Origin: Dehalococcoidia bacterium
GTDB lineage: Bacteria; Chloroflexota; Dehalococcoidia; Lucifugimonadales; QGNO01
DNA: 64,000 nucleotides
Assembly: GCA_965261825.1 (NCBI GenBank)
Contig: OZ253484.1
Location: 65,184-129,183 of the forward strand
Direction of reading: 5' to 3'
Shown here in pieces: positions 2,535 through 63,842 of this stretch (positions are counted from its first letter, which is position 1; every line of letters starts with the position of its first letter). A model generated the notes under the pieces. The model worked only from the letters and a program-made list of their open reading frames with translations. It had not been told where the DNA came from and made no database searches. The position numbers and the translations under genes were made by a program.

Positions 2535-3431
2535 GTGGTTGAAGAGGTCATGGGCCACAAGAGGTTTGCCGTCCAGCAGGCTGTGCTCGGCTGGGCGACA
2601 AACCATCTCCGTGACTATCCCTGGCGCAAGAAGCTTGATAACCCGTATGCCATTATAGTGGCAGAGCTGTTGTTGAAGCGGACCACTGCTAAGGCTGCCT
2701 CAAGGATTTATGAGGAGTTTCTGGGTGAGTTTCCTTCTGTGGAGAAACTAGCTTCGGCTACAGAGAAGGAGATGGTTCAAGCCTTTTCTGGGGTGGGTCT
2801 GCAATGGCAACGAGCAAGGGCTACAAAAAAGCTGGCCGACTATTTGATGGAAGAAGAGGATGGACACATACCCTGCGATTTGGAACGCTTGCTAGCTGTA
2901 CCCGGTCTTGGCGAATACAGCGCTAGAGCTGTGCTGTCGTTTGGATGTGATAAGCCAGTAGCGGTAGTGGATGTCAATGTGGAAAGGGTCTACTCCAGGG
3001 TATTTCAAAAGACCTTGCCAGAGAAACCAACACGCAACTTTCTCCAGTCTTTTGCTGAACAGCTCCTTCCGGCAGACCAGCATAGAGAGTACAACTTTGG
3101 GCTTTTAGATTTAGGAGGTCTGATTTGCAGATACGTAGACCCGTTATGCGGTCAGTGTCCTCTTAACGACGTATGTGATTATTACAGTTTTCGTGGGCCT
3201 AAACGGATTAGGGAAAGACCAGCTGAGTACATCACTTCCGGACCAGGCTCAAAGATCCGTAAGTTACGCAGGGAAAAGGGGATAGGGTTGGTGAAGCTGG
3301 CCCAAACCTCGGGCGTTTCCAAGCTGACCATCATTAAGGCAGAGGCTGGGAGAACAAAGCCAACGCGCCGAACACTAGAGAAGCTAGCAGTCGTCCTTGG
3401 AGTGGATGTCGATACACTTCTCACCAGTTGA
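2535..3431 (+). CDS. HhH-GPD DNA glycosylase (Mig/MutY-like, 4Fe-4S) fused to a C-terminal XRE-type HTH
   Basis: HhH VPGLGEYSARAVL (no EndoIII-type Lys) followed by the Asp region VVDVNVERV. Cluster CX6CX2CX5C (CRYVDPLCGQCPLNDVC). C-terminal IRKLRREKGIGLVKLAQTSGVSKLTIIKAEAG looks like HTH_3. Start is GTG 2535 or ATG 2550, 2 nt after the DGQHR stop. Confidence 0.8.
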   Translation: MVEEVMGHKRFAVQQAVLGWATNHLRDYPWRKKLDNPYAIIVAELLLKRTTAKAASRIYEEFLGEFPSVEKLASATEKEMVQAFSGVGLQWQRARATKKLADYLMEEEDGHIPCDLERLLAVPGLGEYSARAVLSFGCDKPVAVVDVNVERVYSRVFQKTLPEKPTRNFLQSFAEQLLPADQHREYNFGLLDLGGLICRYVDPLCGQCPLNDVCDYYSFRGPKRIRERPAEYITSGPGSKIRKLRREKGIGLVKLAQTSGVSKLTIIKAEAGRTKPTRRTLEKLAVVLGVDVDTLLTS

Positions 3432-3786
3432 AGTGAAGCTCAATAAGGCCGCCGTGTCGTTCGGGGTCGTAGTCTAGGATTGAGTCATCGTCTTCGTCAT
3501 CGGTGGTGTTGTGCAAGACCAGATCGTCTTGCCAGTCGTCCCAGGGGAGTGACCTCAGCCAGTCGATGATCTCGGTTCGCGCCGGTGCGTCAAGCTGCTT
3601 TCTTACGGCGAACTCGTCGAGCATGCGGAGCACCTGGCGCTGGCTGAAGCCGCCCCAGTTGTTGCCCTCGCCGTGCATGTAGCCGTTGGCGCCGGCTTCA
3701 ATGGCTAGCTCCCAGGCGAACTCATAGGCATGGCCTGTAGGGCGTGGCAGGTATTGGATTTTGATGATGCCGACATCTAGTCCCAT
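3421..3786 (-). CDS. hypothetical acidic protein
   Basis: 121-aa ORF with no recognisable motif. Asp/Glu/Trp-rich C-terminus (DDWQDDLVLHNTTDDEDDDSILDYDPE). Convergent 11-nt overlap with the glycosylase gene. Confidence 0.4.
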   Translation of the reverse strand: MGLDVGIIKIQYLPRPTGHAYEFAWELAIEAGANGYMHGEGNNWGGFSQRQVLRMLDEFAVRKQLDAPARTEIIDWLRSLPWDDWQDDLVLHNTTDDEDDDSILDYDPERHGGLIELHFNW

Positions 3787-3934
3787 GGCGGCCTCCGGGT
3801 TGTAGTTTCCGGGATTGTATCGGACCTTTGGCGGCGTGAGAGGACCCTTTTGTCGGGTTGTGGAGGTGGTTTTGGTGGCTGCGCCCGCTCATTTCCTTCG
3901 ACAGGCTCAGGATGAGCGGAGAGGGATGCACGGC

Positions 3935-4494
3935 CTGGGATGCTTCGTCGGCGGGGGTGGATGAAGGCTGGGGTGTCTGACCGACTCCTCAGCATGACAG
4001 GGGGGGTGTCCTCACGTGGGCGATTGACCCCGCGTCGCCACCAGATTGCTTCGGGTTCCCTCGCAATGACGATGGGGGTGTGCGCGGGAATGGGAGCAAA
4101 AAGGAGTCGTGTCCAGGAACGGTTCACCCCCATCTCAATCTTCCCCCATCAAGGGGGAAGAGGTTATGCAGAGGTCTGTCTGCGCGGGAATGACGGTGGT
4201 GTGGGTGCGGTGGTCTGGGATGCTTCGTCGGCGGGGGTGGTTGAGGGCGAGGGGTGTGCAACCGACTCCTCAGCATGACAGGGGGGTGTCCTCACGTGGG
4301 CGATTGACCCCGCGCCGCCGCCAGATTGCTACGCTGCGCTCGCAATGACGATGGGGGGGGTGCGTGGAAATGGGAGCAAAAAGGAGTCGTGTCCAGGAAC
4401 GGTTCACCCCCATCTCAATCTTCCCCCGTCAAGGGGGAAGAGGTTATGCAGAGGTCTGTCTGCGCGGGAACGACGGTGGGTGTGGGTAGACGGG
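3935..4494. repeat. two tandem copies (period 280 bp) of a composite intergenic repeat
   Basis: CTGGGATGCTTCGTCGGCGGGGGTGG... restarts at 3935 and 4215. Both copies run through ...GCAGAGGTCTGTCTGCGCGGGAA(T/C)GACGGTGG with few substitutions. Confidence 0.85.
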
Positions 4495-4511: not shown

Positions 4512-4856
4512 TTAGAGGGCGAGGACGAGGAGGACGGTGACGACGGAGAGGGCGAGTGCGCTGAGGTGGCTGACGGCGGATGCGAGGCTCTTGGATACGG
4601 GCAGCTTGAAGTCGGCGGGGAGGGTGGCGATGCGATGGGCGGCGTGGAAGAGGGTCGTGGAGAGCAGGACGATGAGGAGCAGCTTGGAGACGGGGTTGCC
4701 GAGGAGGGAGAGGATGTTGTCGTAGACGACGGCGTCGGGCAGCCATCCGAGGGGGCCAGCGACGTTGTTGGCGAAGATGAGGGCGGGCAGTGCGAAGGCG
4801 GCGATGGTGCCGCCGACGCTGAAGAGGGCCCACCACATAGGTTCCAGCTTTTGCAT
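4512..4856 (-). CDS. frdD: fumarate reductase membrane anchor subunit D
   Basis: Only the last 114 codons of the long 4512..5756 ORF look real: MQKLEPMWWALFSVGGTIAAF...LFHAAHRIA resembles E. coli FrdD (EPxFWxLFxxGG, HR). ATG at 4854-4856. Confidence 0.6.
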   Translation of the reverse strand: MQKLEPMWWALFSVGGTIAAFALPALIFANNVAGPLGWLPDAVVYDNILSLLGNPVSKLLLIVLLSTTLFHAAHRIATLPADFKLPVSKSLASAVSHLSALALSVVTVLLVLAL

Positions 4857-6012: not shown

Positions 6013-6051
6013 GGTGTGCTCCTGTGGTCCGTGAGAGTGGTTCGTTGAATC

Positions 6052-7770
6052 CTAGTACTTGCGCTCCTGCGGTTGCCAGTTGGTAATGGTAACAGGGATG
6101 TTCTCCAATTTGGGGCCGTCCGCGGTGTGACGGGCGAGCTGGTGGACAAGCCAGGCATCGTCGTTTCGATCAGGGAAGTCGCGGCGAACGTGAGCGCCGC
6201 GGGACTCCTGGCGGGCGTAGGCGGAGTGTACGATGGTCTGGGCGATGTCCAGCATGAAATCAAGCTCCAGTGCGCCGATAAGTTCCACGTTGTAGACGCC
6301 GGTGGTGTCATGGACGTCGAGGTTTTGAATCCGTTCACGCAGGTCGGCGATCTCAGACATGGATTGCTGCAAGCCCTCCTTGGTGCGGAAGACCTCCGCG
6401 CCTCGTTCCATGGAGTCCTGGAGCTGGCGACGGAGGGTGGCGACTTGCTCTGTGCCTCTCTTGCCGCTGAGGAAGTGATCGCGGATGCGTTTTTCGTCGT
6501 GCTCGGCGGCGGGGGAGAGGTCGGCGGCGGAGTGAGGGGTTTCGAGTGCGTAGCTGGCGGCGGCGGCTCCGGCCCTGGCGCCGAATACGAGACATTCGGT
6601 GAGGGAATTGGATCCGAGACGGTTTGCGCCGTTGATGGTGACGCAGGCGTTTTCGCCGGCGGAGTAGAGGCCTTCCATGGGAGTCAGCCCGTCGTTATCG
6701 GTGTGGACGCCTCCCATCATGTAATGGAGCACGGGTCGCACGGGTATGGGTTGGGTGACGGGGTCTATGCCGACGTAGGTGCGGGCAAGCTCCAGAATGA
6801 AGGGCAGGCGCTCGTTGAGATGCTTTTCACCAAGATGGCGGAGGTCCAGGTGCACGTAGCCGTCCTTGGGATCGCCGTAGCCCAGGCCCTGCTCCAGCTC
6901 AGTAATGATAGCGCGGGAGATAATGTCTCTGGGGCCCATCTCCATGCGGTTGGGGATGTACTTTTCCAAGAAGCGCTCGCCGCTGGCATTGATCAGGTAT
7001 CCGCCTTCACCGCGGGCGGCTTCGGTGATGAGGATGCCGGTGTCTGGGAGGCCAGTGGGGTGGAACTGTACGAACTCCATGTCCTTCAGCGGCGCACCGG
7101 CGCGGTAGGCCAGCGTCATTCCGTCGCCGGTGCAGATGGCGCCATTGGTGGTGAAGGCGAAGACTCGACCGCCGCCGCCGGCGGTGAGGATGACGGACTT
7201 GGCCGTGATGAGGTGGAACTTGCCTGTGCTGATTTCAAGGGCAACGACACCCCTGGCTTTGCCATCGTCGACGACTATGGAGGTAACGAACCATTCGTCG
7301 TGACGCTTGATGGAGGGGTACTTGAGGGAGGTTTGGAAAAGGGTGTGCAGCATGTGGAAGCCGGTCTTATCGGAGGCGAAGACGGTGCGCTTGACACTCA
7401 TGCCGCCGAAGGCGCGAACGGCGACGTGGCCGTCCGGGTCGCGGCTCCAGGGACAGCCCCAGTGCTCCATCTGGATGATCTCGGCGGGGGCTTCCTTAAC
7501 GAAGAGCTCTACGGCATCCTGGTCGGCAAGGTAGTCCGCGCCGCGGATGGTGTCGGTGGCGTGCAGTTCAAAGTTGTCGTAGTCACGAAGGACGGCGGCT
7601 GCGCCGCCTTCCGCGGAGACGGTGTGACTGCGGACGGGGTAGACTTTGGATACGATGGCGATGTCCAGGGGCTTACCGGCGGATTCGGCGGTGTGCACCG
7701 CTTCAATGGCGGCTCTGAGACCAGCTGCGCCACCGCCAATGATCAGGATGTCGTGCTGTAAGGTTTCCAT
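6052..7770 (-). CDS. frdA: succinate dehydrogenase/fumarate reductase flavoprotein subunit
   Basis: 572 aa. FAD fold DILIIGGGAAGLRAA, covalent-FAD His region RSHTVSAEGG, plus HPTG and RGEGG motifs. Confidence 0.95.
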   Translation of the reverse strand: METLQHDILIIGGGAAGLRAAIEAVHTAESAGKPLDIAIVSKVYPVRSHTVSAEGGAAAVLRDYDNFELHATDTIRGADYLADQDAVELFVKEAPAEIIQMEHWGCPWSRDPDGHVAVRAFGGMSVKRTVFASDKTGFHMLHTLFQTSLKYPSIKRHDEWFVTSIVVDDGKARGVVALEISTGKFHLITAKSVILTAGGGGRVFAFTTNGAICTGDGMTLAYRAGAPLKDMEFVQFHPTGLPDTGILITEAARGEGGYLINASGERFLEKYIPNRMEMGPRDIISRAIITELEQGLGYGDPKDGYVHLDLRHLGEKHLNERLPFILELARTYVGIDPVTQPIPVRPVLHYMMGGVHTDNDGLTPMEGLYSAGENACVTINGANRLGSNSLTECLVFGARAGAAAASYALETPHSAADLSPAAEHDEKRIRDHFLSGKRGTEQVATLRRQLQDSMERGAEVFRTKEGLQQSMSEIADLRERIQNLDVHDTTGVYNVELIGALELDFMLDIAQTIVHSAYARQESRGAHVRRDFPDRNDDAWLVHQLARHTADGPKLENIPVTITNWQPQERKY

Positions 7771-7868: not shown

Positions 7869-7927
7869 CCCCTGGGTTCCTGCCTCCGCAGGAATGACGG
7901 GGCAGGCTGCACGGGAACGACGGTGTG
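7869..7927. repeat. REP-type hairpins (family B)
   Basis: CCCCTGGGTTCCTGCCTCCGCAGGAATGACGG followed by GCAGGCTGCACGGGAACGACGGTGTGG. Same architecture as about 12 other intergenic sites. Confidence 0.7.
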
Positions 7928-46857: not shown

Positions 46858-47059
46858 GCGGTCCGCCTTCCTGCTCGCAACAGTGGCAATGTGGAATGAA
46901 ATGTCCCAGTACGGATGTTAGATAACGTATTACTGTTCATTCAACAAACACAATAGTCATCTTGCAACCACATCCACAATCTTATCACTCAGAGACATAT
47001 CATCCAAAGGTGGTTCTGATTGACATCCCATCTGAGGTATGCTCAAGGTGACCCGCAGG

Positions 47060-47337
47060 CCCGCTCACTCCTTTCGGCTGTGCTCAGGGTAAACTTAAAG
47101 CTCAGGGTGAGCGGGGGTGCGCGATGCTCAGGGTGAGCGGAAGTCCATACCCCACCACTCCTGGATTCCCGTCTTCACGGGAATGACGGTGTGGGGTGCC
47201 CGCTCACTCCTTTCGGCTGTGCTCAGGGTAAACTTAAAGCTCAGGGTGGGCGGGGGTGCGCGATGCTCAGGGTGAGCGGAAGTCCATACCCCACCACTCC
47301 TGGATTCCCGTCTTCACGGGAATGACGGTGTGGGGAG
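47060..47337. repeat. two tandem copies (period 139 bp) of a composite REP unit
   Basis: CCCGCTCACTCCTTTCGGCTGTGCTCAGGGTAAACTTAAAGCTCAGGGTGAGCGGGGG...CCTGGATTCCCGTCTTCACGGGAATGACGGTGTGGGG restarts at 47060 and 47199. Confidence 0.85.
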
Positions 47338-47340
47338 TGG

Positions 47341-47616
47341 CTAGATGAACAGCGGGCCAAAGACAAGGGATACTATAGCCATGAGCTTTATCAGGATATT
47401 GAGGGACGGTCCGCTGGTGTCCTTGAACGGGTCGCCTACGGTATCACCGACCACGGCGGCGTGGTGAGTATCCGAGTCCTTGCCGCCGAAGTTCCCCAGT
47501 TCTATGTATTTCTTGGCGTTGTCCCAAGCCCTCCCGGCATTGGCCATGGTGATAGCGAGGAGGAATCCGGCGGAGATGGCTCCTATGAGCAGGCCGACCA
47601 GGGCCTCAGCGCCCAT
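47341..47616 (-). pseudogene. orphan 3' fragment of hppA (last 91 codons)
   Basis: Differs at 6 of 91 residues from the C-terminus of the full hppA at 49128..51170. Has no upstream coding continuation. Confidence 0.85.
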
Positions 47617-47648
47617 GAGGCTATGGGGGCTTTGGTGAGCGTGGTCAT

Positions 47649-48944
47649 CTAGACCGCCAACCGATCCCTGCCCAAGACGAAGGACCCTAAATCAACGGGA
47701 CGTCCCTCTAATAGGCATCTTATAGGTACGGCGAACATCCCGTCCCCAAATCCTGCGCCAACCTCGCCGTCATATACCACCACCCCGGCCACGAAGCGAT
47801 CGCCCGCAGCCTTCTTCAACTTCCGCAACCCGCGAAAGTCAGACTGCGTTACGGTGGCCGCCGCCTTCACTTCTACGCCGGCCACCTCTCTCGCTCCGCG
47901 CTCGATGACGATATCGACCTCTACCTGGTCCCTGTCGCGGTAGTGGAAGAACTCCAGGGGCGTCTCCTGGCATATGGACTGACGTCTTAGTTCCTGGAAC
48001 ACGAACGATTCCAAGTATTGACCGAGCAGTTCGCGATTCTGTGCAAGGTCACGGGGACCGACTCCAATCAGGGCGCATGCAAGACCGGTATCCCCTATAT
48101 GGAGCTTGGGCGTCTTGACCAAGCGCCTCAACTGGTTGGCGTGCCATGGCGGCAGTCGGTCTACAAGAAACAACCGTTCCAGCAGCGTCACGTAGTCGCC
48201 GATGGTAGGTCGGCTCAACTGGAAGAGGGATGCCATATTCGACAGGTTATAGAGTTGAGCGGTCTGCAATGCTGCGGCAGTCAGTAGCCGGGGCAGTGCG
48301 TCAAGTGTGCTGATCCTGGCCATGTCCCGCACGTCCCGCTGGAGCTGCGTGTCGATGAAGTTACGGTACCAGTTTGCCCGGCGCCGGGAGGTGGGACGGG
48401 CCAGCGCCTCTGGATAGCCGCCGCAGGCTATACGTTCTGCCAGCTCATCGGCAAGACGCTGGAAGGTGGACGTCTTGAACTCCCCGCGAAACAGGTCGTC
48501 TAGGAAGTTGGGGATGCCGCCGAACAATTCGCCCTGGGAGAGAGGGTGCAGCCGCAGTATCTCCATCCGGCCAGCCAGCGAATCGGCAAGGGCCGGCACG
48601 AGCAGTACCTGGGACGAACCGGTGAGCAGGAAGCGCCCGGGAGCGCGGCGACGGTCTATCTCCTGTTTCAAAGCGGTGAAGAGAGAGGGAACTCGCTGCA
48701 CTTCGTCGAGGATTGCATGCTCCGGTAGCCCGGCGACGAAACCCGCGGGGTCGGCGTTGGCAGCATTACGGGCGACGTCATCGTCAAAGCTGATATAGCC
48801 GTAGCCCATGGAGTCGCCGACCAGCCGGGCAAGGGTGGTCTTGCCGCACTGGCGCGGCCCGTGCAACAGCACAGCCGGCGAGTCGGACAGCGCTTCGACC
48901 AGAGGTCCTTCGGCGTAGCGGGAATAGAGGAGAGATGACTGCAT
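47649..48944 (-). CDS. AAA+ ATPase (AAA_14 + DUF4143 type)
   Basis: 431 aa. Walker [13 protein letters not shown], Walker B AILDEVQ. The C-terminal half is typical of the DUF4143/COG1373 family. Confidence 0.8.
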
Positions 48945-48950
48945 CGTCCC

Positions 48951-49027
48951 ATTGTAACTTTATAGTGCGTCTAATTGCAAGATATTGTTCCGTCTGATTG
49001 CAACTTTAGACAGCGTCTAATTGAAAG
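48951..49027 (-). promoter_or_regulatory. AT-rich phased repeats upstream of the ATPase gene
   Basis: CGTCT(A/G)ATTG at 48968, 48991 and 49014 (23-bp phasing), within two 31-bp direct repeats ATTG(T/C)AACTTTA....GCGTCTAATTG(C/A)AAG at 48951-48981 and 48997-49027. Confidence 0.45.
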
Positions 49028-49127
49028 ACATGGGTTATGTCGCCACCTCACCAGCCTTGGCAACAGCGCATCCCGCTGGTACGGTCCTGGATTCCCGTCG
49101 GCACGGGAATGACGGTGTGGGGAGTGG

Positions 49128-51170
49128 CTAGATGAACAGCGGGCCAAAGACAAGGGATACTATAGCCATGAGCTTTATCAGGATATTGAGCGACGGTCCG
49201 CTGGTGTCCTTGAACGGATCGCCCACTGTATCACCAACCACGGCGGCGTGGTGAGTATCCGAGCCCTTGCCGCCGAAGTTCCCCAGTTCTATGTATTTCT
49301 TGGCGTTGTCCCAAGCTCCCCCGGCATTGGCCATGGTGACGGCGAGAAGGAATCCGGCGGAGATGGCTCCTATGAGCATGCCGCCCAGGGCCTCAGGGCC
49401 CATGAGGGCGCCGACGGCTATGGGCGCAACGATGGCGACGAGCCCGGGCAGGATCATCTCGCGGAGTGCGCCGCTGGTGCTGATATCCACGGCGCGGGCG
49501 TAGTCGGGGCGGCCCGTGCCTTCCATAATGCCGGGGATCTCGCGGAACTGCCGCCTCACCTCTTCGATCATCTTGTTGGCGGCACGGCCCACGGCCTGCA
49601 TGGTCATAGAGGAGAAGACAAAGGGAAGTACCGCGCCAATGAGCAGTCCCAGCAGGACTTTGGTTTCTAGTAGATCAAGAAGGTCGAGGCCGGCGACCTG
49701 CGAATAGGCGACCATAAGGGCGAGAGCGGTAAGGACGGCGGAGCCTATGGCGAAGCCTTTGCCGGTGGCGGCGGTTGTATTGCCCAGAGCGTCTAGGGCA
49801 TCCGTACGCTGTCGGACCTCGGGAGGAAGGCCGGCTTGCTCCGCAATGCCGCCGGCGTTATCGGCTACGGGCCCGTAGGCGTCGGTGGCCAGGGTGATGC
49901 CAAGGGTGGAGAGCATACCCACTGCGGCCAGGGCAATGCCGTAAACGCCAGCCAGGGCATCTGCTATCCAGATGCCCGCCACAACAGCAGCTAGCGGCAC
50001 CACGGTGCTGAGCATGCCAAGGCCAAGGCCGCCGATGATGACGGTAGCGGGGCCGGTCAGGGCCTGCTCGGATAGCTTCTTGGTGGGGCTGTATTCGTAG
50101 GCGGTGAAGTACTCGGTGGCGAACCCTATTACCTGTCCCACCACCAGACCGACCAAGACAACCCAAAACAGCTTGAAGTCGAGACCTAGAATGGCGATGG
50201 CTACGGCGGTGCCTATGAGAACTAGTCCACCGGCGGAGTAGATGCCGGTGCGAAGGGCCCAGAGCAATCTTCCCATGGTGGCATTCTCTCCGGTGCGGAC
50301 AAGGAATGTGCCCAATATGGATGAGACGATGCCTATTGAAGCGACGAGAAACGGGAGCACGAAGCGTGCTCCGTCGAAGGAATCGCTTGAACCGCTGAAA
50401 ACGACAGCGGTTGCTCCCAGGGCGATGGCGGCGATGATAGAGCCGACGTAAGATTCGAAGAGGTCTGCGCCCATACCGGCTACGTCACCAACGTTGTCGC
50501 CTACGTTGTCGGCGATGGTGGCCGGATTACGCGGGTCGTCCTCCGGTATGTTCTGCTCCACCTTGCCCACGAGGTCCGCGCCGACGTCGGCGGCCTTGGT
50601 GAAGATACCGCCTCCGACACGGGCGAAGAGGGCGATGGATGATGCGCCAAAGCCAAAGCCGGCGACGATGTTGGCGTCTTGGAAGATCCAATAGAGGGCG
50701 GCGACGCCAATGATGCCTATTCCCACTACGGTTATGCCCATTACGGCGCCGCTGTTGAAAGCTACGCGGAGACCCGGGTTGAGGCCCTGAGCAGCGCCAG
50801 CGGTGGTGCGAGTGTTTGCCCTTACCGCGATGTTCATGCCGATAAATCCGGCCAGACCGGAGCCAATGGCTCCAACCAAGTATGAGATAGCGGTGGAGGG
50901 CAATGAGCGGTCAGAGCCGACTTTATCCAGGACGTCGTAGTCAATGAAGACAGCGATGATCACCGCGATGACTATGACAAAGGCGGCGAGGATGCGGTAC
51001 TCACGCTTGAGGAAGGCCATGGCCCCTTCCTGGATGGCTTTGCCGATATCTTGAACGGTCTCATTGCCGGCGCTTTGGCGGAGGACCCTGGTGATGAGAT
51101 AGACGGAGAAGAGTAATGCGACGATTCCTACGGCAATGGAAGCAGCGATGAGCTCTGGATAGGTTTCCAT
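49128..51170 (-). CDS. hppA: membrane-bound proton/sodium-translocating pyrophosphatase
   Basis: 680 aa, polytopic. Motifs [53 protein letters not shown]. Confidence 0.95.
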
Positions 51171-51267: not shown

Positions 51268-51582
51268 GGCAAGGGGGCAAACAGGCAGGTGGGCGGTACG
51301 CGGTCAACTACGGCCTGGATGCTTCGTCGGCGGAGGTGGATGAAGGCTTAGGGGTTTGACCGACTCCTCAGCATGACAGACCGCCCTGCCCCTGGGTTCC
51401 CGCCTACGCGGGAAAGACGGTGTAGGCAGACGGGCAAACGGGCAGGTGGGTGGTACGCGGTCAACTACGGTCTGGATGGTTCGTCGGCGGAGGTGGATGA
51501 AGGCTTAGGGGTTTGACCGACTCTTCAGCATGACAGACCGCCCTGCCCCTGGGTTCCCGCCTGCGCGGGAAAGACGGTGTAG
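51268..51582. repeat. two tandem composite REP units (about 157 bp each)
   Basis: A G-rich tract, then AACTACGG(C/T)CTGGATG(C/G)TTCGTCGGCGGAGGTGGATGAAGGCTTAGGGGTTTGACCGACTC(C/T)TCAGCATGACAGACCGCCCTGCCCCTGGGTTCCCGCCT(A/G)CGCGGGAAAGACGGTGTAGG, occurring twice. Confidence 0.85.
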
Positions 51583-53063: not shown

Positions 53064-53816
53064 TTGAATTCTCTCAAGCAGATCCGAGATGCGGTCCGTA
53101 ATTGCCGGAACGCTGACAACATCGGTTGCGTCACTGTCACCAAATACCGCGACCAGAAGAATGTTGAGGGGGCAAGTCATCCCGTTCTGTTTCAGATAGT
53201 GCCGAAGGCCAGAATCGCGATAATAGGTGCTGTCCCAGGTTCAATCGATGCTGACCCAACAAAAGAAGCTTATCAGAAGCTGGTCAATGGACAGTTCTCT
53301 TTAGGACACAAGAGTGCTCAAGGGCTTGGCGAGATTATGATGAGGGTAGGAAATATCAAGAGAATAGACCTACCCTGTAGAATAACACGCCTTCCAGATA
53401 CGAGGAGTATTCAAGATGATCACCTGTTGGCACGTAAGCGCCTGGGTCTACACGCAACAAATCTGGTTAAGTGTCCTGCCCCTACAGGTTGGGAAAACTC
53501 CGAGAAGGAGCTTTGGAAGCAGGCCGCAAGAGCCTGTGAGAGTAGGCATTTAGCGAATGAAATTGAGTCTATAGATCCCTCAATGATAATCCTCTTGGGG
53601 CAGAGGGTTGTGGATTACATCGCGGAGAGGGAATCTTGGGGTTCATCCGTTAGCAGGCTCAAAATATCGGAATGGGCTCAACAAGCACGCTACCTGCCGT
53701 GCTATGGCAGAGAGAGGCTTGTAAGTGCTTGGGTGTTCACCCAGGAGGACAGTACTTCTGGATACAAGGTAAGGCTTGCTGGGATTTGTACGCTGAGCAA
53801 ATGGCTAAATTCGTAG
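53064..53816 (+). CDS. uracil-DNA glycosylase-superfamily-like protein
   Basis: 250 aa in an AT-richer patch. Layout resembles family-4/5 UDGs: ARIAIIGAVPGS (where GE(A)PG sits), LHATNLVKCPAP, MIILLGQRVVDYI. Weak, by eye only. Confidence 0.4.
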   Translation: MNSLKQIRDAVRNCRNADNIGCVTVTKYRDQKNVEGASHPVLFQIVPKARIAIIGAVPGSIDADPTKEAYQKLVNGQFSLGHKSAQGLGEIMMRVGNIKRIDLPCRITRLPDTRSIQDDHLLARKRLGLHATNLVKCPAPTGWENSEKELWKQAARACESRHLANEIESIDPSMIILLGQRVVDYIAERESWGSSVSRLKISEWAQQARYLPCYGRERLVSAWVFTQEDSTSGYKVRLAGICTLSKWLNS

Positions 53817-53924
53817 AATAGTCGGAGTACACGAAAGAACCGGGACGATGGCATTATCTAAATTTAGGTGCCACACTTACATGACCCCCAAGTGGCAAAA
53901 AACTAGGTGTGAGGTCAGAACGTA

Positions 53925-54160
53925 ATGCCTATTCATGAGGAAGTCCTTGCGGCAGCCAAGCTTCTGAGCGATGCCTCCGGTGACGGCACATTCACTCCCA
54001 TTCAAGTCGTTGAGGCTTTGCCGCACTTAAAGAGAGTACCGTTCGTACGCATGTTGTAAGCCGGTGTTGTGTAAACGCTCCAGGCAACCACGCAGTCAGA
54101 TACGCTTACTTTCGTCGTGTTGAGCGTGGTATCTATAAGATTGAGCCTCCTTTTCGCTAA
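53925..54160 (+). pseudogene. small conserved-motif protein, frameshifted
   Basis: ATG 53925: MPIHEEVLAAAKLLSDASGDGTFTPIQVVEALPHL, then shift near 54030 to ..KESTVRTHVVSRCCVNAPGNHAVRYAYFRRVERGIYKIEPPFR (TAA 54158-54160). Confidence 0.3.
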
Positions 54161-54265
54161 TTGGCCAGAAAGACCGCAGTGCAGGATGCCACCAGTGGGC
54201 CCTGCTCCTTACGGCGACGGGGCTTTCCCAGGACAGGGTGCCTTAGTTGGTATGAGGTTCCTTTT

Positions 54266-61687: not shown

Positions 61688-62020
61688 TGCAGGCTACCTC
61701 CGGGGGTTGGACCCACTAATATGAATGATTACTAAAATAGCAACAGGAGCTCACCCTTCTTCACAGGGCGGACGGCAAACTCCGTTGGAATGCTAGCATT
61801 GAGCTTGCCTCAGTGTCAAGCGTTCAGGTACGGAAACGGGAGGAAATATGCGGACATACGGAAATGGGGCAGGGGAAGGGGCTGGCTCTCGGCCCCGGCT
61901 TGCCTCTAAACCACCTCTGGCCGTGGATGCCCGTCGCCACGGGCATGACAGAAGGGGGCGCGGGGACGGAAGGGACGTGCGGGCATGACGGTGAGGGGCG
62001 CAGGGATGATGGGTGCACGG

Positions 62021-62125
62021 CTAGGAGACGCCCTTCTGCATCAAGTAATCGTGGAGGCGTTCCAGCGTTTTGCGGTTCTCTTCCAGGGGGAATCCGTCCA
62101 CGGCGTAGGCGCGCTTCACCTTGAC
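62021..62125 (-). pseudogene. orphan 3' fragment (34 codons) of the DUF4392 gene
   Basis: VKVKRAYAVDGFPLEENRKTLERLHDYLMQKGVS* versus FKVERTYAVDGFPLEENRETLERLHDYLMQQGVS* at the end of 62991..63842. Confidence 0.75.
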
Positions 62126-62185
62126 ACTAGTGCTGTTTTAACCTAGTCTGATGGCTAGTCAGTACAATGGATAAAGAGGTTAACC

Positions 62186-62446
62186 ATGAGCAAGAGATGG
62201 CCGGTTCAGGATGCCAAATCGAGATTTAGCGAGCTTCTGGACACCACCCTCGCGGAAGGGCCACAGATTGTAACCAAGCGAGGTGTGGAAGCCGCCGTGC
62301 TCCTTCCCATTGAGCAGTGGCGGAGGCTGGAGCGGATGACGAGACCGGATCTGAAAGAGTTGCTGCTTGCCCCTGAGGCACGAACCGAGACCCTTACGTC
62401 GCCGCGCCAGCAGCACCGCCGCCGCCCACCCGTAGTAGTGGAGTAG
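62186..62446 (+). CDS. type II antitoxin (Phd/YefM- or VapB-like)
   Basis: MSKRWPVQDAKSRFSELLDTTLAEGPQIVTKRGVEAAVLLPIEQWRRL. Lies 3 nt upstream of the PIN gene. Confidence 0.75.
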   Translation: MSKRWPVQDAKSRFSELLDTTLAEGPQIVTKRGVEAAVLLPIEQWRRLERMTRPDLKELLLAPEARTETLTSPRQQHRRRPPVVVE

Positions 62447-62449
62447 CCT

Positions 62450-62857
62450 ATGTACCTCTTGGACACCAACGTGGTTTCGGAGCTGCGTCGCCCCCGACCG
62501 CATGGCGCAGTTCTGAATTGGATTGCAGACGCACCGGCGGAGCAGCTCTTTGTGTCTGCCGTTACGGTTGGCGAGATACAGGCGGGGATCGAGATCACCC
62601 GTGAGCAGGATGAAGCCAAGGCTGAGGAGTTGGGAGCGTGGCTGGACAAGGTACTGGCTTCCTACGGCATACTCCCAATGGATGCGCTCGCCTTCAGAGA
62701 GTGGGCGCGGCTGATGCACGGGAGATCAGGCGCTATGACCGAAGACGCCATGATAGCGGCGACAGCCATGGTTCACAGGTTGACGGTGGTCACTAGAAAC
62801 GTGGCCGACTTTGACGACCTTGGTGTTGACTATGTGAATCCGTTTGGAAGTGGATAG
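62450..62857 (+). CDS. vapC: PIN-domain toxin VapC/FitB
   Basis: MYLLDTNVVSELRRP...VTVGEIQAGI...AMIAATAMVHRLTVVTRNVADF. Confidence 0.85.
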   Translation: MYLLDTNVVSELRRPRPHGAVLNWIADAPAEQLFVSAVTVGEIQAGIEITREQDEAKAEELGAWLDKVLASYGILPMDALAFREWARLMHGRSGAMTEDAMIAATAMVHRLTVVTRNVADFDDLGVDYVNPFGSG

Positions 62858-62990
62858 GCAGGCCAGCCCCCGCTTGCTCTAAGACCACCTCCGCCCCTGG
62901 ATGCCCGTCGCGACGGGCATCCAGGGGCGCGGGGACGGATAGGGACGCGCGGGCATGACGGTGAGGGGCGCAGGGATGGTGGGAACGCGG

Positions 62991-63842
62991 CTAGGAGACG
63001 CCCTGCTGCATTAAGTAATCGTGGAGGCGTTCCAGCGTTTCCCGGTTCTCTTCCAGGGGGAATCCGTCGACGGCGTAGGTGCGTTCCACTTTGAAGCCGT
63101 CCACAGCGCCGACATCTACCATTTGCTTGATGACCTCTTCTTCTTCCTCCGGCGAGGGCAGTAGATTCTGCTTCGCCTGCAGGGAGAGGCCTGCTATGAG
63201 ACCGGAAGCGCCCCAGTTGGAGACGCTGGCCAGGATCAGCTTGTCGGTGGGAACTATGGTGGGCTGCTTGGGCAGGGTATCGATGGTGGGGATCTGTTCG
63301 GCCAGCTTGCCCATGCCTATCTCGTTGCCGCCGTCTCCTATGCCCACGGTGGCGTTGTGGTCGAGCACGAGATAGTCCGCCCTGGCGTTGTACTGCGAGA
63401 TGTCGACGCCCCGCATGTTCAGATATTCGCCCTTCTGAGTCACGCCGCAGCGTTCGGTGGATATGACGATGGACGGCTTCAAGTCGCCCAGGAGCTCCCG
63501 GGCAAACTTCCGGCTAGAGTCTTCGTCCGTAACGGGGAATTCAATCACTTCGCCCACGTCTGAAAGGCAGTTGTAGAGAGACGAGCTAAACTCGTCGGTA
63601 ACGTGTGTGACGTCGTAACCAAGCTGTTGCAGCGCTTTACCGATGAAATAAGCGCCCGGGGGGCCGTCGGTCTCCGAAGCCATGGCTCCTATTATGAAAA
63701 AGCCGCTGATGACGAAGGCGCGTCCCGGGTTGCGCAGGATCAGTTGCGCCGCGTCTTCGCAGTAGTCTTCGGGGAGGTACCCACGCAGCTTGGATATTCC
63801 CCTCTGGTCACGGTCAAGGATGATGTCTTCTATAACGGACAC
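62991..63842 (-). CDS. DUF4392-family protein (D-glutamate cyclase-like, N-terminal-type domain)
   Basis: 283 aa. ETDGPPGAYFIGKAL, IGDGGNEIGMG, SVSNWGASG motifs as remembered for DUF4392. Confidence 0.65.
   Translation of the reverse strand: MSVIEDIILDRDQRGISKLRGYLPEDYCEDAAQLILRNPGRAFVISGFFIIGAMASETDGPPGAYFIGKALQQLGYDVTHVTDEFSSSLYNCLSDVGEVIEFPVTDEDSSRKFARELLGDLKPSIVISTERCGVTQKGEYLNMRGVDISQYNARADYLVLDHNATVGIGDGGNEIGMGKLAEQIPTIDTLPKQPTIVPTDKLILASVSNWGASGLIAGLSLQAKQNLLPSPEEEEEVIKQMVDVGAVDGFKVERTYAVDGFPLEENRETLERLHDYLMQQGVS

Follow-up and report, generated by a model that had tools for sequence, protein, structure and literature searches.

The window analysed here is a 64,000-nucleotide (nt) stretch of DNA from a Dehalococcoidia bacterium (contig OZ253484.1), and the subject is a place in it where the 3' end of a housekeeping gene occurs twice. 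The gene is hppA, which encodes a membrane H+/Na+ pyrophosphatase. One copy of its last part completes the intact gene, the other is an orphan fragment, and a single gene for an AAA_14/DUF4143 ATPase lies between them. The analysis favours the view that one species-level clade of Dehalococcoidia carries here the fixed and vertically inherited scar of a past recombination, and not an active mobile element. All features of the locus are on the minus strand, and higher window coordinates stand earlier in transcription. Read in that direction, the order is hppA, a repetitive extragenic palindromic (REP) hairpin called REP1, a 140-nt leader, the open reading frame (ORF) with AAA_14 and DUF4143 domains, a 28-nt junction, a 91-codon hppA tail, a second hairpin (REP2) and two 139-nt units. 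Besides hppA itself, the neighbours are an MFS gene, which is divergent from hppA, and FAS1_DH. The features of the locus are the following:

49128..51170, minus strand: intact hppA, membrane H+/Na+ pyrophosphatase, 680 aa (Pfam H_PPase, E = 7e-269, whole profile)
49085..49407, minus strand: gene-completing repeat copy with the final 92-95 codons of hppA, the stop codon and REP1 (sequence comparison)
49085..49130, minus strand: REP1, an imperfect hairpin (CCGTCATTCCCGTG CC GACGGGAATCCAGG) straight after the hppA stop (pattern search; predicted fold -14 kcal/mol)
49032..49084, minus strand: unique spacer x (CCGTACCAGCGGGATGCGCTG...), where the block in common with the sister clade has its left edge (first 35 nt identical to L097 by blastn and alignment)
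48945..49031, minus strand: four CAATyrGACG repeats with exact 23-nt spacing, the last ending at the ATG (sequence reading)
47649..48944, minus strand: cargo AAA_14+DUF4143 ATPase, 431 aa, PADLOC candidate defence family PDC-S01 (Pfam; PADLOC)
47621..47648, minus strand: junction J, without homology, made of ATGACCAC (common to the sister clade), GCTCACC and AAAG, then the orphan start (sequence comparison)
47298..47620, minus strand: orphan copy with the 91-codon hppA tail (ORF 47341-47616), stop and REP2, a decaying pseudogene fragment (sequence comparison and Pfam)
47059..47335, minus strand: two tandem 139-nt REP-containing units continuing from REP2 (repeat search)

The two copies are 323-nt direct repeats (47298-47620 and 49085-49407) with 16 mismatches, or 95.0% identity, at an offset of 1787 nt. 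A repeat search alone returned 47298-47597 and 49085-49384 at 95%, and base-by-base comparison lengthened both copies. A pair of direct repeats at this constant offset had been described in the original prediction, which was made from the sequence alone, and it is borne out with refined bounds. The comparison also confirmed what each copy had been said to contain: 91 hppA codons, the stop codon and a REP hairpin, with 6 residues differing between the peptides. The description of the upstream copy as intact and the downstream copy as the orphan is right in the direction of transcription; in window coordinates, it is 49085-49407 that completes hppA. The mismatches are concentrated in the gene-proximal 220 nt, and the final 107 nt contain only 2 differences, both in the loop of the REP hairpin. 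The repeat stops 1 nt past the REP, and REP2 runs on into the array of 139-nt units. Both tail peptides match Pfam H_PPase, with the orphan covering profile positions 560-645 of 645, and junction J has no homology to hppA.

Between the copies are 1464 nt, taken up by the ATPase ORF and its leader alone. This content had been predicted, as had the AT-richness of the leader, whose repeat array has 38% G+C compared with 59% for the window. The absence of an integrase had been noted as well, and no recombinase lies between the repeats. Rfam gave no match in the locus, which means that the leader is not one of the known RNA elements, and with no tRNA in the window a tRNA attachment (att) site plays no part here. 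Among species representatives, the closest hppA genes come from Dehalococcoidia, at no more than 72% identity, and their flanks are unlike those of the window. Exact look-ups of the window's hppA and ATPase gave no match, so that the genomic context was taken from near-identical homologues; the comparison loci used below carry numbers with the letter L.

Other samples contain long-read contigs (0.5-3.9 Mb) with ATPases 99-100% identical to that of the window. Three independent long-read assemblies (contigs of 2.4, 0.5 and 3.9 Mb, from different samples) have the same order together with strain-specific single-nucleotide polymorphisms (SNPs), indels and unit numbers. In L081, L082 and L083, this order includes an H_PPase fragment of 91 aa, called as a gene behind the ATPase, and these loci differ from one another by SNPs, by an extra 79-nt insertion in one or other copy, and by tandem unit numbers that range from 2 to 5-6. 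At least 10 contigs have records of orphan peptides, and the orphan is present in all assemblies with a 99-100% identical ATPase. Recurrence across long-read assemblies that are independent of each other and come from the same Dehalococcoidia species means that the structure did not arise as an assembly artefact. Among the assemblies examined, neither an empty site nor polymorphism for presence or absence within the species was found, and the comparison of hppA downstream regions in related genomes, which had been proposed as a check, likewise brought no true empty site to light.

The sequence of the orphan indicates where it came from and how long it has been in place. The orphans of the window and of L082 and L083 have a 10-nt deletion at the 5' edge in common, as well as private substitutions, among them G->R within GGAWDNAKK, an invariant motif; G->D is a further change of the window orphan. 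Between the window and L083, the orphans differ at 5 of 285 sites and the intact tails at 15 of 285, which places the orphan in the same low-divergence frame as the ATPase and FAS1_DH. The L081 orphan is without the 10-nt deletion and has L081-specific bases. Of 285 sites, 4 distinguish it from the intact copy of the same strain (~98% identity) and 25 from the orphan of the window. This pattern is one of concerted evolution, in which the orphan and the intact copy have repeatedly exchanged sequence by gene conversion. Because of the inherited deletion and substitutions that the orphans share, together with the conversion in L081, the duplication must be older than the split of these strains, and it is fixed. 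At four clade-diagnostic sites (130, 133, 187 and 262), the orphan has the window-clade base each time. Its nearest intact allele is the hppA of L083, and its private changes are pseudogene-like and degenerative. On this evidence, the orphan is a copy of a resident-lineage allele and not a foreign, diverged tail. The original prediction had a diverged hppA 3' end brought in on a circle, and these comparisons do not bear that part out.

The sister clade, represented by L084, L097 and L098, provides the most informative comparison. Its hppA genes have 91-94% nucleotide identity to that of the window, and the background divergence at 4-fold sites is 0.17-0.29. In the window clade and in the sister clade, the cassette (spacer x, the four-repeat array, the ORF and ATGACCAC after its stop) lies between hppA and FAS1_DH. 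In L097 and L084, it stands directly 3' of hppA and there is no hppA orphan. The left flank of the L097 cassette has the same 35 nt (CCGTACCAGCGGG...), with a REP remnant before it. Its right end has the same TAGATGACCAC, followed at once by the REP left flank and arm (ACCCACCGTCATTC), and beyond the cassette there are REP units and then the FAS1_DH upstream region with the first 22 codons of that gene. The window orphan is placed exactly between GCTCACC and GTCATTCC of REP2. Because the sister clade carries the cassette without the orphan, cargo and duplication are separable, and since L097 and L084 have the same cassette and junctions and lack the orphan, the arrival of the cargo need not produce the duplication. 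The cargo has a separate lateral history, and the duplication is not needed for its presence.

Two further sister-clade loci show what can happen to such a cassette. L084 has a tandem duplication of the cassette (period 1387 nt) in which just the last 76 nt of the second ORF are left, so that unit, leader and ATPase are followed by unit, leader and the last 76 nt of the ATPase; a pair of 37-42-nt REPs (4809-4850 and 6450-6491) brackets the cassette. In L098, the ATPase ORF and 400 nt downstream of it are gone and the complete array and leader are kept (7081-7201), with deletions at microhomologies of 3-6 nt (ACA, CGTTGC). This variant without the ATPase is a microhomology deletion and not an empty site. 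No outgroup with the cassette was found, and L102, with an hppA of 84% identity, is without synteny.

Divergence at 4-fold sites separates the history of the cassette from that of its neighbours. The ATPase differs by 0.078 from L097 and by 0.128 from L084, compared with 0.17-0.29 for eight core genes (hppA, MFS, amidohydrolase, FAS1_DH paralogue, epimerase, GLUCM-like, LytB and inositol phosphatase). It is thus about half as diverged as the core genes between the clades (Fisher p ~3e-4), and from this lower divergence it follows that the history of the cassette block is younger and lateral. In the non-coding DNA, 12 of 214 positions differ from L097 upstream of FAS1_DH, beyond the orphan, compared with 21 of 158 upstream of hppA and MFS, and the low-divergence block seems to run across J into the FAS1_DH upstream region. 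Low divergence on both sides of J would not be expected if J parted donor from recipient DNA. A different boundary appears within the species (window compared with L083 and L081; 49128-53000), where hppA and MFS are 4-30 times more diverged than the ATPase and FAS1_DH. Between the window and L083, the values are 0.123 for hppA, 0.084 for MFS, 0.020 for the ATPase and 0.004 for FAS1_DH, and the breakpoint is at the hppA stop/REP1. This is a recombinational replacement of the hppA-MFS allele that ended at the hppA stop/REP1, and such replacement is therefore frequent at this gene end. Up to the very end of the gene, the intact hppA tail keeps ~10% divergence from L097 and is not donor-like. Allele replacement and gene conversion together blur the genealogy of donor and recipient around J.

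Gene-tail duplications around accessory genes occur at two more loci in this lineage. The original prediction had noted a recurrence of the architecture with different cargo at 61904-63095, and it is real: at 61892-63094, a Phd/VapC pair lies between two tails of a D-glutamate-cyclase-like (GLUCM-like) gene. The repeats, 61892-62124 and 62866-63094, are ~88% identical with small indels, and the features are:

62866..63094, minus strand: completing copy, made up of the last 34 codons of the GLUCM-like gene (62991-63842) and a REP-containing 3' flank of 130 nt
62186..62857, plus strand: cargo, Phd antitoxin (62186-62446) and PIN/VapC toxin (62450-62857) (Pfam, NCBIfam)
62125-62185: promoter region of the cargo
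61892..62124, minus strand: orphan GLUCM-like tail and REP (sequence comparison)

The cargo calls rest on Pfam PhdYeFM_antitox (E = 4e-15) and PIN (E = 1e-17) and on NCBIfam phd_fam, with VapC below its cut-off. In L099, from a sister lineage, the same orphan junction is present, Phd is kept and VapC is reduced to 80 nt (6020-6492). The toxin-antitoxin instance is hence old, and L099 shows its cargo decaying in place. The third instance is in L084, where 88 nt of the MFS gene end (273-360 and 1340-1427) are repeated at 94% identity, 982 nt away, around a DUF7669 gene and a retropepsin-like gene. At the corresponding site, L097 has a 96-nt REP segment instead of the retropepsin-like gene and the orphan, and this instance fits no single model cleanly. 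A scan of 1.17 Mb of comparison loci found repeats of the gene-tail kind confined to this lineage, and a search of the window found no tail or head orphans beyond the two known tails. The same neighbourhood shows another small variable spot at a gene end: a UDG-superfamily gene that the sister clade does not have lies between the MFS and DUF7669 genes of the window (53064-53816 and 53889-54161), and the DUF7669 copy of the window is a pseudogene with 3 stop codons.

The cargo ATPase matches the PADLOC profile PDLC04790 (PDC-S01) over its full length (residues 6-413, E = 4.3e-161), and it also matches Pfam AAA_14 and DUF4143 (E = 6e-46 for the latter). DUF4143/COG1373 has been placed in the PD-(D/E)XK superfamily (PMC3424549). 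A C-terminal motif of this type is present in the window protein (D344 ... E358-V-K360), and D337, D339, E342, D344, E348, E358 and K360 are invariant in 26 homologues. The AlphaFold model has a mean pLDDT of 48, which is too poor for a fold search, and a sequence search of the PDB gave P-loop matches only, with no solved-structure relative beyond these. No experimental data on the PDC-S01 family were found in the literature. The gene can be regarded as an accessory gene with a candidate defence function and its own regulatory array.

The four repeats of this array overlap a promoter-like TTGCAA-18-TACAAT site (48951-48980), and no Shine-Dalgarno sequence is evident by eye upstream of the ATPase. 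The array is kept with the ATPase gene in other genomic contexts and phyla. Nearly every sampled PDC-S01 homologue has 3-8 direct repeats with a 22-23-nt period that end at the ATG or a few nt before it, and the array-bearing homologues span Chloroflexota, Alpha- and Gammaproteobacteria, Thermus and Mycobacterium, at protein identities from 100% down to ~32%. Arrays were seen at 48945-49031 in the window and in L084-L089, L091-L093, L097, L100, L101, L103, L113, L114, L121, L123 and L124, in the 70-160 nt preceding each ATPase start codon. The motif CAATyrGACG occurs in many homologues, including those on Agrobacterium and Marinobacter plasmids at 47% protein identity; other motifs are GGTCG, CTGACG, GGCCG and ACTTTrGAwwATTC, and in the remotest members (~30%) a long palindrome replaces the array. 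The full-length profile match puts the cargo within PDC-S01 (AAA_14/DUF4143, COG1373), whereas no description of a phased upstream array was found in the literature retrieved on this family. The array may be explained more simply as an autoregulatory operator than as a mobility signal.

Relatives of the ATPase were also examined for flanking repeats in ~25 contexts. The scan of metagenomes with the ATPase gave homologues at no more than 64% only. The ATPases of L085, after a tRNA-Arg, and L086, after relA, are 82-83% identical to that of the window, and DNA similarity to these loci is limited to the array and ORF (49027->47649). Since the similarity ends there, array and ORF behave as a unit that is found in different places. 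In L085, whose ATPase is 83% identical, an exact 17-nt repeat of the 3' end of tRNA-Arg(CCT) (4741-4757 and 6368-6384) brackets 1.6 kb with no integrase. In L103, an IMG/VR contig, a 45%-identical ATPase is encoded, on the opposite strand, between the gene of a phage tail protein and the small gene that follows. A 32-nt duplication there (2847-2878 and 4341-4372) holds the overlapping stop/start (ATGAGATGA), so that both genes are intact, and the cassette resembles in its behaviour a 'moron' whose target duplication is long. L089 and L090 have a 32-nt duplication around an HTH_17 gene and the ATPase; in L089 (63%-identical ATPase, 3383-3904), this excisionase-type HTH_17 gene is directly upstream of the array, and the 32-nt repeats contain a hairpin. 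The other loci checked, including 9 of 10 plasmid contexts, have no flanking repeat, and two plasmid homologues adjoin recombinase genes. The survey of DUF4143 ATPases for flanking duplications, which the original prediction had suggested, was thus productive in part: target duplications of 17-32 nt were found at L085, L103 and L089/L090, and none in most other contexts. At three loci, the operator or leader is repeated after the ATPase gene (L084, 4882-6446; L117, 2808-2941 and 4175-4308, a segment of 134 nt; L127, 1887-1921 and 3164-3199), and these repeats look like collapsed tandem duplications of the cassette in three unrelated lineages.

REP hairpins are abundant in this genome region. 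The pattern has 7 matches in the window, where 0 were expected, all on the minus strand (at 7871, 47160, 47299, 49086, 51391, 51548 and 51624); the predicted folds range from -14 to -23 kcal/mol, and variants are present in all related loci. One REP variant in L084 has compensatory stem changes (GTACCCGCGCAGGCGGGTAC). The number of 138-139-nt units differs by strain, with 2 in the window and L081 and 5-6 in L083 (L083 6536-7287). Further tandem duplications of REP-bearing intergenic DNA are found at 51268-51581 (157 nt, two copies) and 3936-4480 (280 nt, two copies). Direct-orientation REPs flank the cassette in both clades, and the idea that this flanking is meaningful by itself was dropped, as nearly all intergenic regions here hold REPs. 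An integron cassette with attC sites was also rejected. There is no GTTRRRY core at the REP boundaries when these are read by eye, housekeeping genes also lie between REPs, and no integron integrase was found among the scanned ORFs, the scan of the window being incomplete.

Any model of the locus requires one homology-free junction (J, 47621-47648) and one end that is defined by REP homology. The account preferred here, which is held tentatively and falls a little short of an even chance, is local copying of the end of hppA by host functions, with the REPs on either side of the cassette as the seed. REP2, downstream of the cassette, would have paired with REP1, after the hppA stop, in the window clade's ancestor. 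By a one-step route, repair synthesis primed by REP2 on the REP1 template would have run ~280 nt backwards into hppA and ended in a homology-free join at ATGACCAC/GCTCACC. By a two-step route, the hppA tail and cassette would have been duplicated in tandem, and the second cassette then deleted by REP-by-REP recombination. Either route would lead to the hppA tail and REP1, the cassette, the copied tail and REP2. Local copying is favoured because of the state of the sister clade, the position of the orphan inside the REP2 left flank, the resident type of the orphan and the seemingly common genealogy across J. It is also favoured because REPs stand on both sides of the cassette in every lineage and because duplication followed by internal deletion is documented at the same locus in L084, with a comparable case in L117. 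Dispersed hairpin repeats, such as REPs and bacterial interspersed mosaic elements (BIMEs), are known to recombine, tandem duplications collapse and leave deletion remnants, and repeat copies evolve in concert. The hppA locus differs from these known rearrangements in that the coding tail of an essential gene is duplicated across an accessory gene, by a route whose exact steps are inferred.

Several observations weigh against local copying. It does not explain why all three gene-tail duplications of the lineage bracket accessory genes, nor does it explain the 17-32-nt target duplications at L085, L103 and L089. A microhomology deletion between CACC and CACC would turn the window state into that of L097, and the direction of gain or loss is unproven. 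For this reason, the argument that the deletion endpoint coincides with J, and that the orphan must hence be a gain, is weakened, as such a deletion gives the sister-clade sequence equally well. An old orphan could have been given a young, clade-like appearance by gene conversion. Beyond J, the evidence for continued low divergence comes from 214 non-coding bases, which are perhaps constrained (p ~0.015), and the lower synonymous divergence of the ATPase requires a separate lateral exchange.

A second explanation is a serious rival, although it is regarded with more doubt than belief: the duplication came together with the cargo, by one homologous crossover in hppA and an illegitimate join, with the incoming DNA either a circle (Campbell integration) or linear (homology-facilitated illegitimate recombination, HFIR). 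The donor DNA would have carried the 3' part of a relative's hppA, a REP and the cassette, the orphan would be the recipient's original tail, and no integrase would be needed. One junction of the locus is homologous and the other illegitimate, which is precisely the topology expected. There is experimental evidence for both HFIR and the integration of circles by single crossover in Acinetobacter, Pseudomonas stutzeri, S. pneumoniae and E. coli, where HFIR inserts ~1 kb and single-crossover circles duplicate 109-950 bp of the homologous segment (PMC3240628). The hppA locus resembles these events in its junctions, its insert of ~1 kb and the duplication of the anchor; however, they are laboratory events with a defined donor, whereas here the relation of donor to recipient is not demonstrable and the sister clade has the insert without the duplication. 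HFIR has also been proposed as the origin of C-terminal displacement, or 'orphan' 3' regions, at Rhs, contact-dependent inhibition (CDI) and type VI secretion system (T6SS) effector-immunity loci (PMC5361080). These loci likewise have an intact gene, one or more small accessory genes and a displaced 3' fragment, with no recombinase and with host recombination invoked. Their tails are different toxin domains with diversified function, whereas the tails at hppA are near-identical housekeeping sequences, no function is evident for the orphan, and gene and cargo are unrelated.

The lateral movement of the cargo, with an ATPase at about half the core-gene 4-fold divergence, is in line with this explanation, as is the within-species replacement of the hppA-MFS allele with its breakpoint at the hppA stop/REP1. 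It also accounts for orphans beside accessory cargo at three loci and for the target duplications around other members of the ATPase family. Against it stand a sister clade that has the same cassette and junctions and no orphan, an intact tail that is not donor-like (~10% from L097 up to the stop), and the low divergence on both sides of J. In addition, no true empty site was found, and no microhomology is demonstrable at J. Campbell integration, which the original prediction had put forward, is therefore supported in part, as to topology, the lack of a recombinase, the recurrence and the lateral cargo, and it is not supported as an account of how the cargo arrived, in view of the sister clade and the resident-type orphan.

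A broader version, which is considered unlikely, is that small cassettes (the PDC-S01 ATPase with its array, or toxin-antitoxin pairs) spread without an integrase, duplicate conserved gene ends over 17-323 nt, and are released as circles of cargo and tail that are able to re-enter genomes with that gene. Within this reading, the ATPase on its phased array might itself drive insertion. Taken on its own, the possibility that the ATPase cassette is mobile, with an AAA+/PD-(D/E)XK protein that binds the array and inserts at conserved gene ends with target duplications of variable length (17-323 nt) and no damage to the neighbouring genes, is given little credence. The ends of transposons can have multiple binding sites, which the ATPase array recalls. 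The same array and ORF occur after hppA, tRNA-Arg and relA (ATPases 82-83% identical), target duplications of 17 nt (L085), 32 nt (L103) and 32 nt (L089) are present, and the nuclease motif is invariant. Nevertheless, the second and third duplications hold unrelated cargo (Phd/VapC; DUF7669 and the retropepsin-like gene), the array is at one end only and there are no conserved termini beyond array and ORF. A target duplication is found in none of 10 plasmid contexts and is likewise missing at several other loci, and no strand-transfer enzyme is evident.

It is highly improbable that the locus is a decayed or cis-mobilisable integrative element, with its recombinase elsewhere or lost, an attP that carried a replacement hppA tail, and repeats that correspond to attL and attR. 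Phage 21 and e14 integrate at icd in E. coli in this manner, driven by an integrase, and duplicate 100-200 bp of the gene tail. As in these elements and in islands that target tRNA genes, direct repeats of the target 3' end bracket the insert at hppA and the gene stays intact; the hppA locus differs in having no integrase, a cargo of one gene, and repeat bounds that are a REP hairpin and not a core site. L085 resembles a classic tRNA att pair, the L089 repeats enclose an excisionase-type HTH_17 gene, and two plasmid homologues lie beside recombinase genes. These points are opposed by the lack of a recombinase in the 1464-nt interval, by the sister-clade cargo without att-like hppA repeats, by the failure to find an excision polymorphism, and by boundaries set by REPs instead of a short core site. 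A Pfam scan that covered ~18 ORFs of the window, which has 52 ORFs of at least 200 aa, found no recombinase. Finally, collapse or chimera of the assembly at a repeat, named beforehand as a refuting case, has nothing in its favour beyond the general risk of metagenome assembly and is excluded for practical purposes by the three independent long-read assemblies with strain-specific variation and the orphan peptides on at least 10 contigs.

The analysis favours seeing this finding as a fresh example of known processes, of modest novelty, and not as a new class of integrase-less mobile element. If the local scar is the true account, the locus would be a clean natural case of REP hairpins and illegitimate joins reshaping the ends of essential genes beside accessory ones in uncultured Dehalococcoidia. 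It would also show that gene conversion can keep gene fragments looking 'alive', and it would call for caution against taking every gene-tail duplication for an attachment site. If insertion is the true account, the duplications would be footprints of homology-anchored, recombinase-free uptake of defence and toxin-antitoxin cassettes, a process that has been measured in the laboratory and is rarely documented in wild genomes. The most promising leads are the phased array of PDC-S01 and the target duplications around some members of the family. The conserved array offers a concrete handle, as a DNA ligand and for a test of autoregulation, on an uncharacterised and very widespread candidate defence protein.

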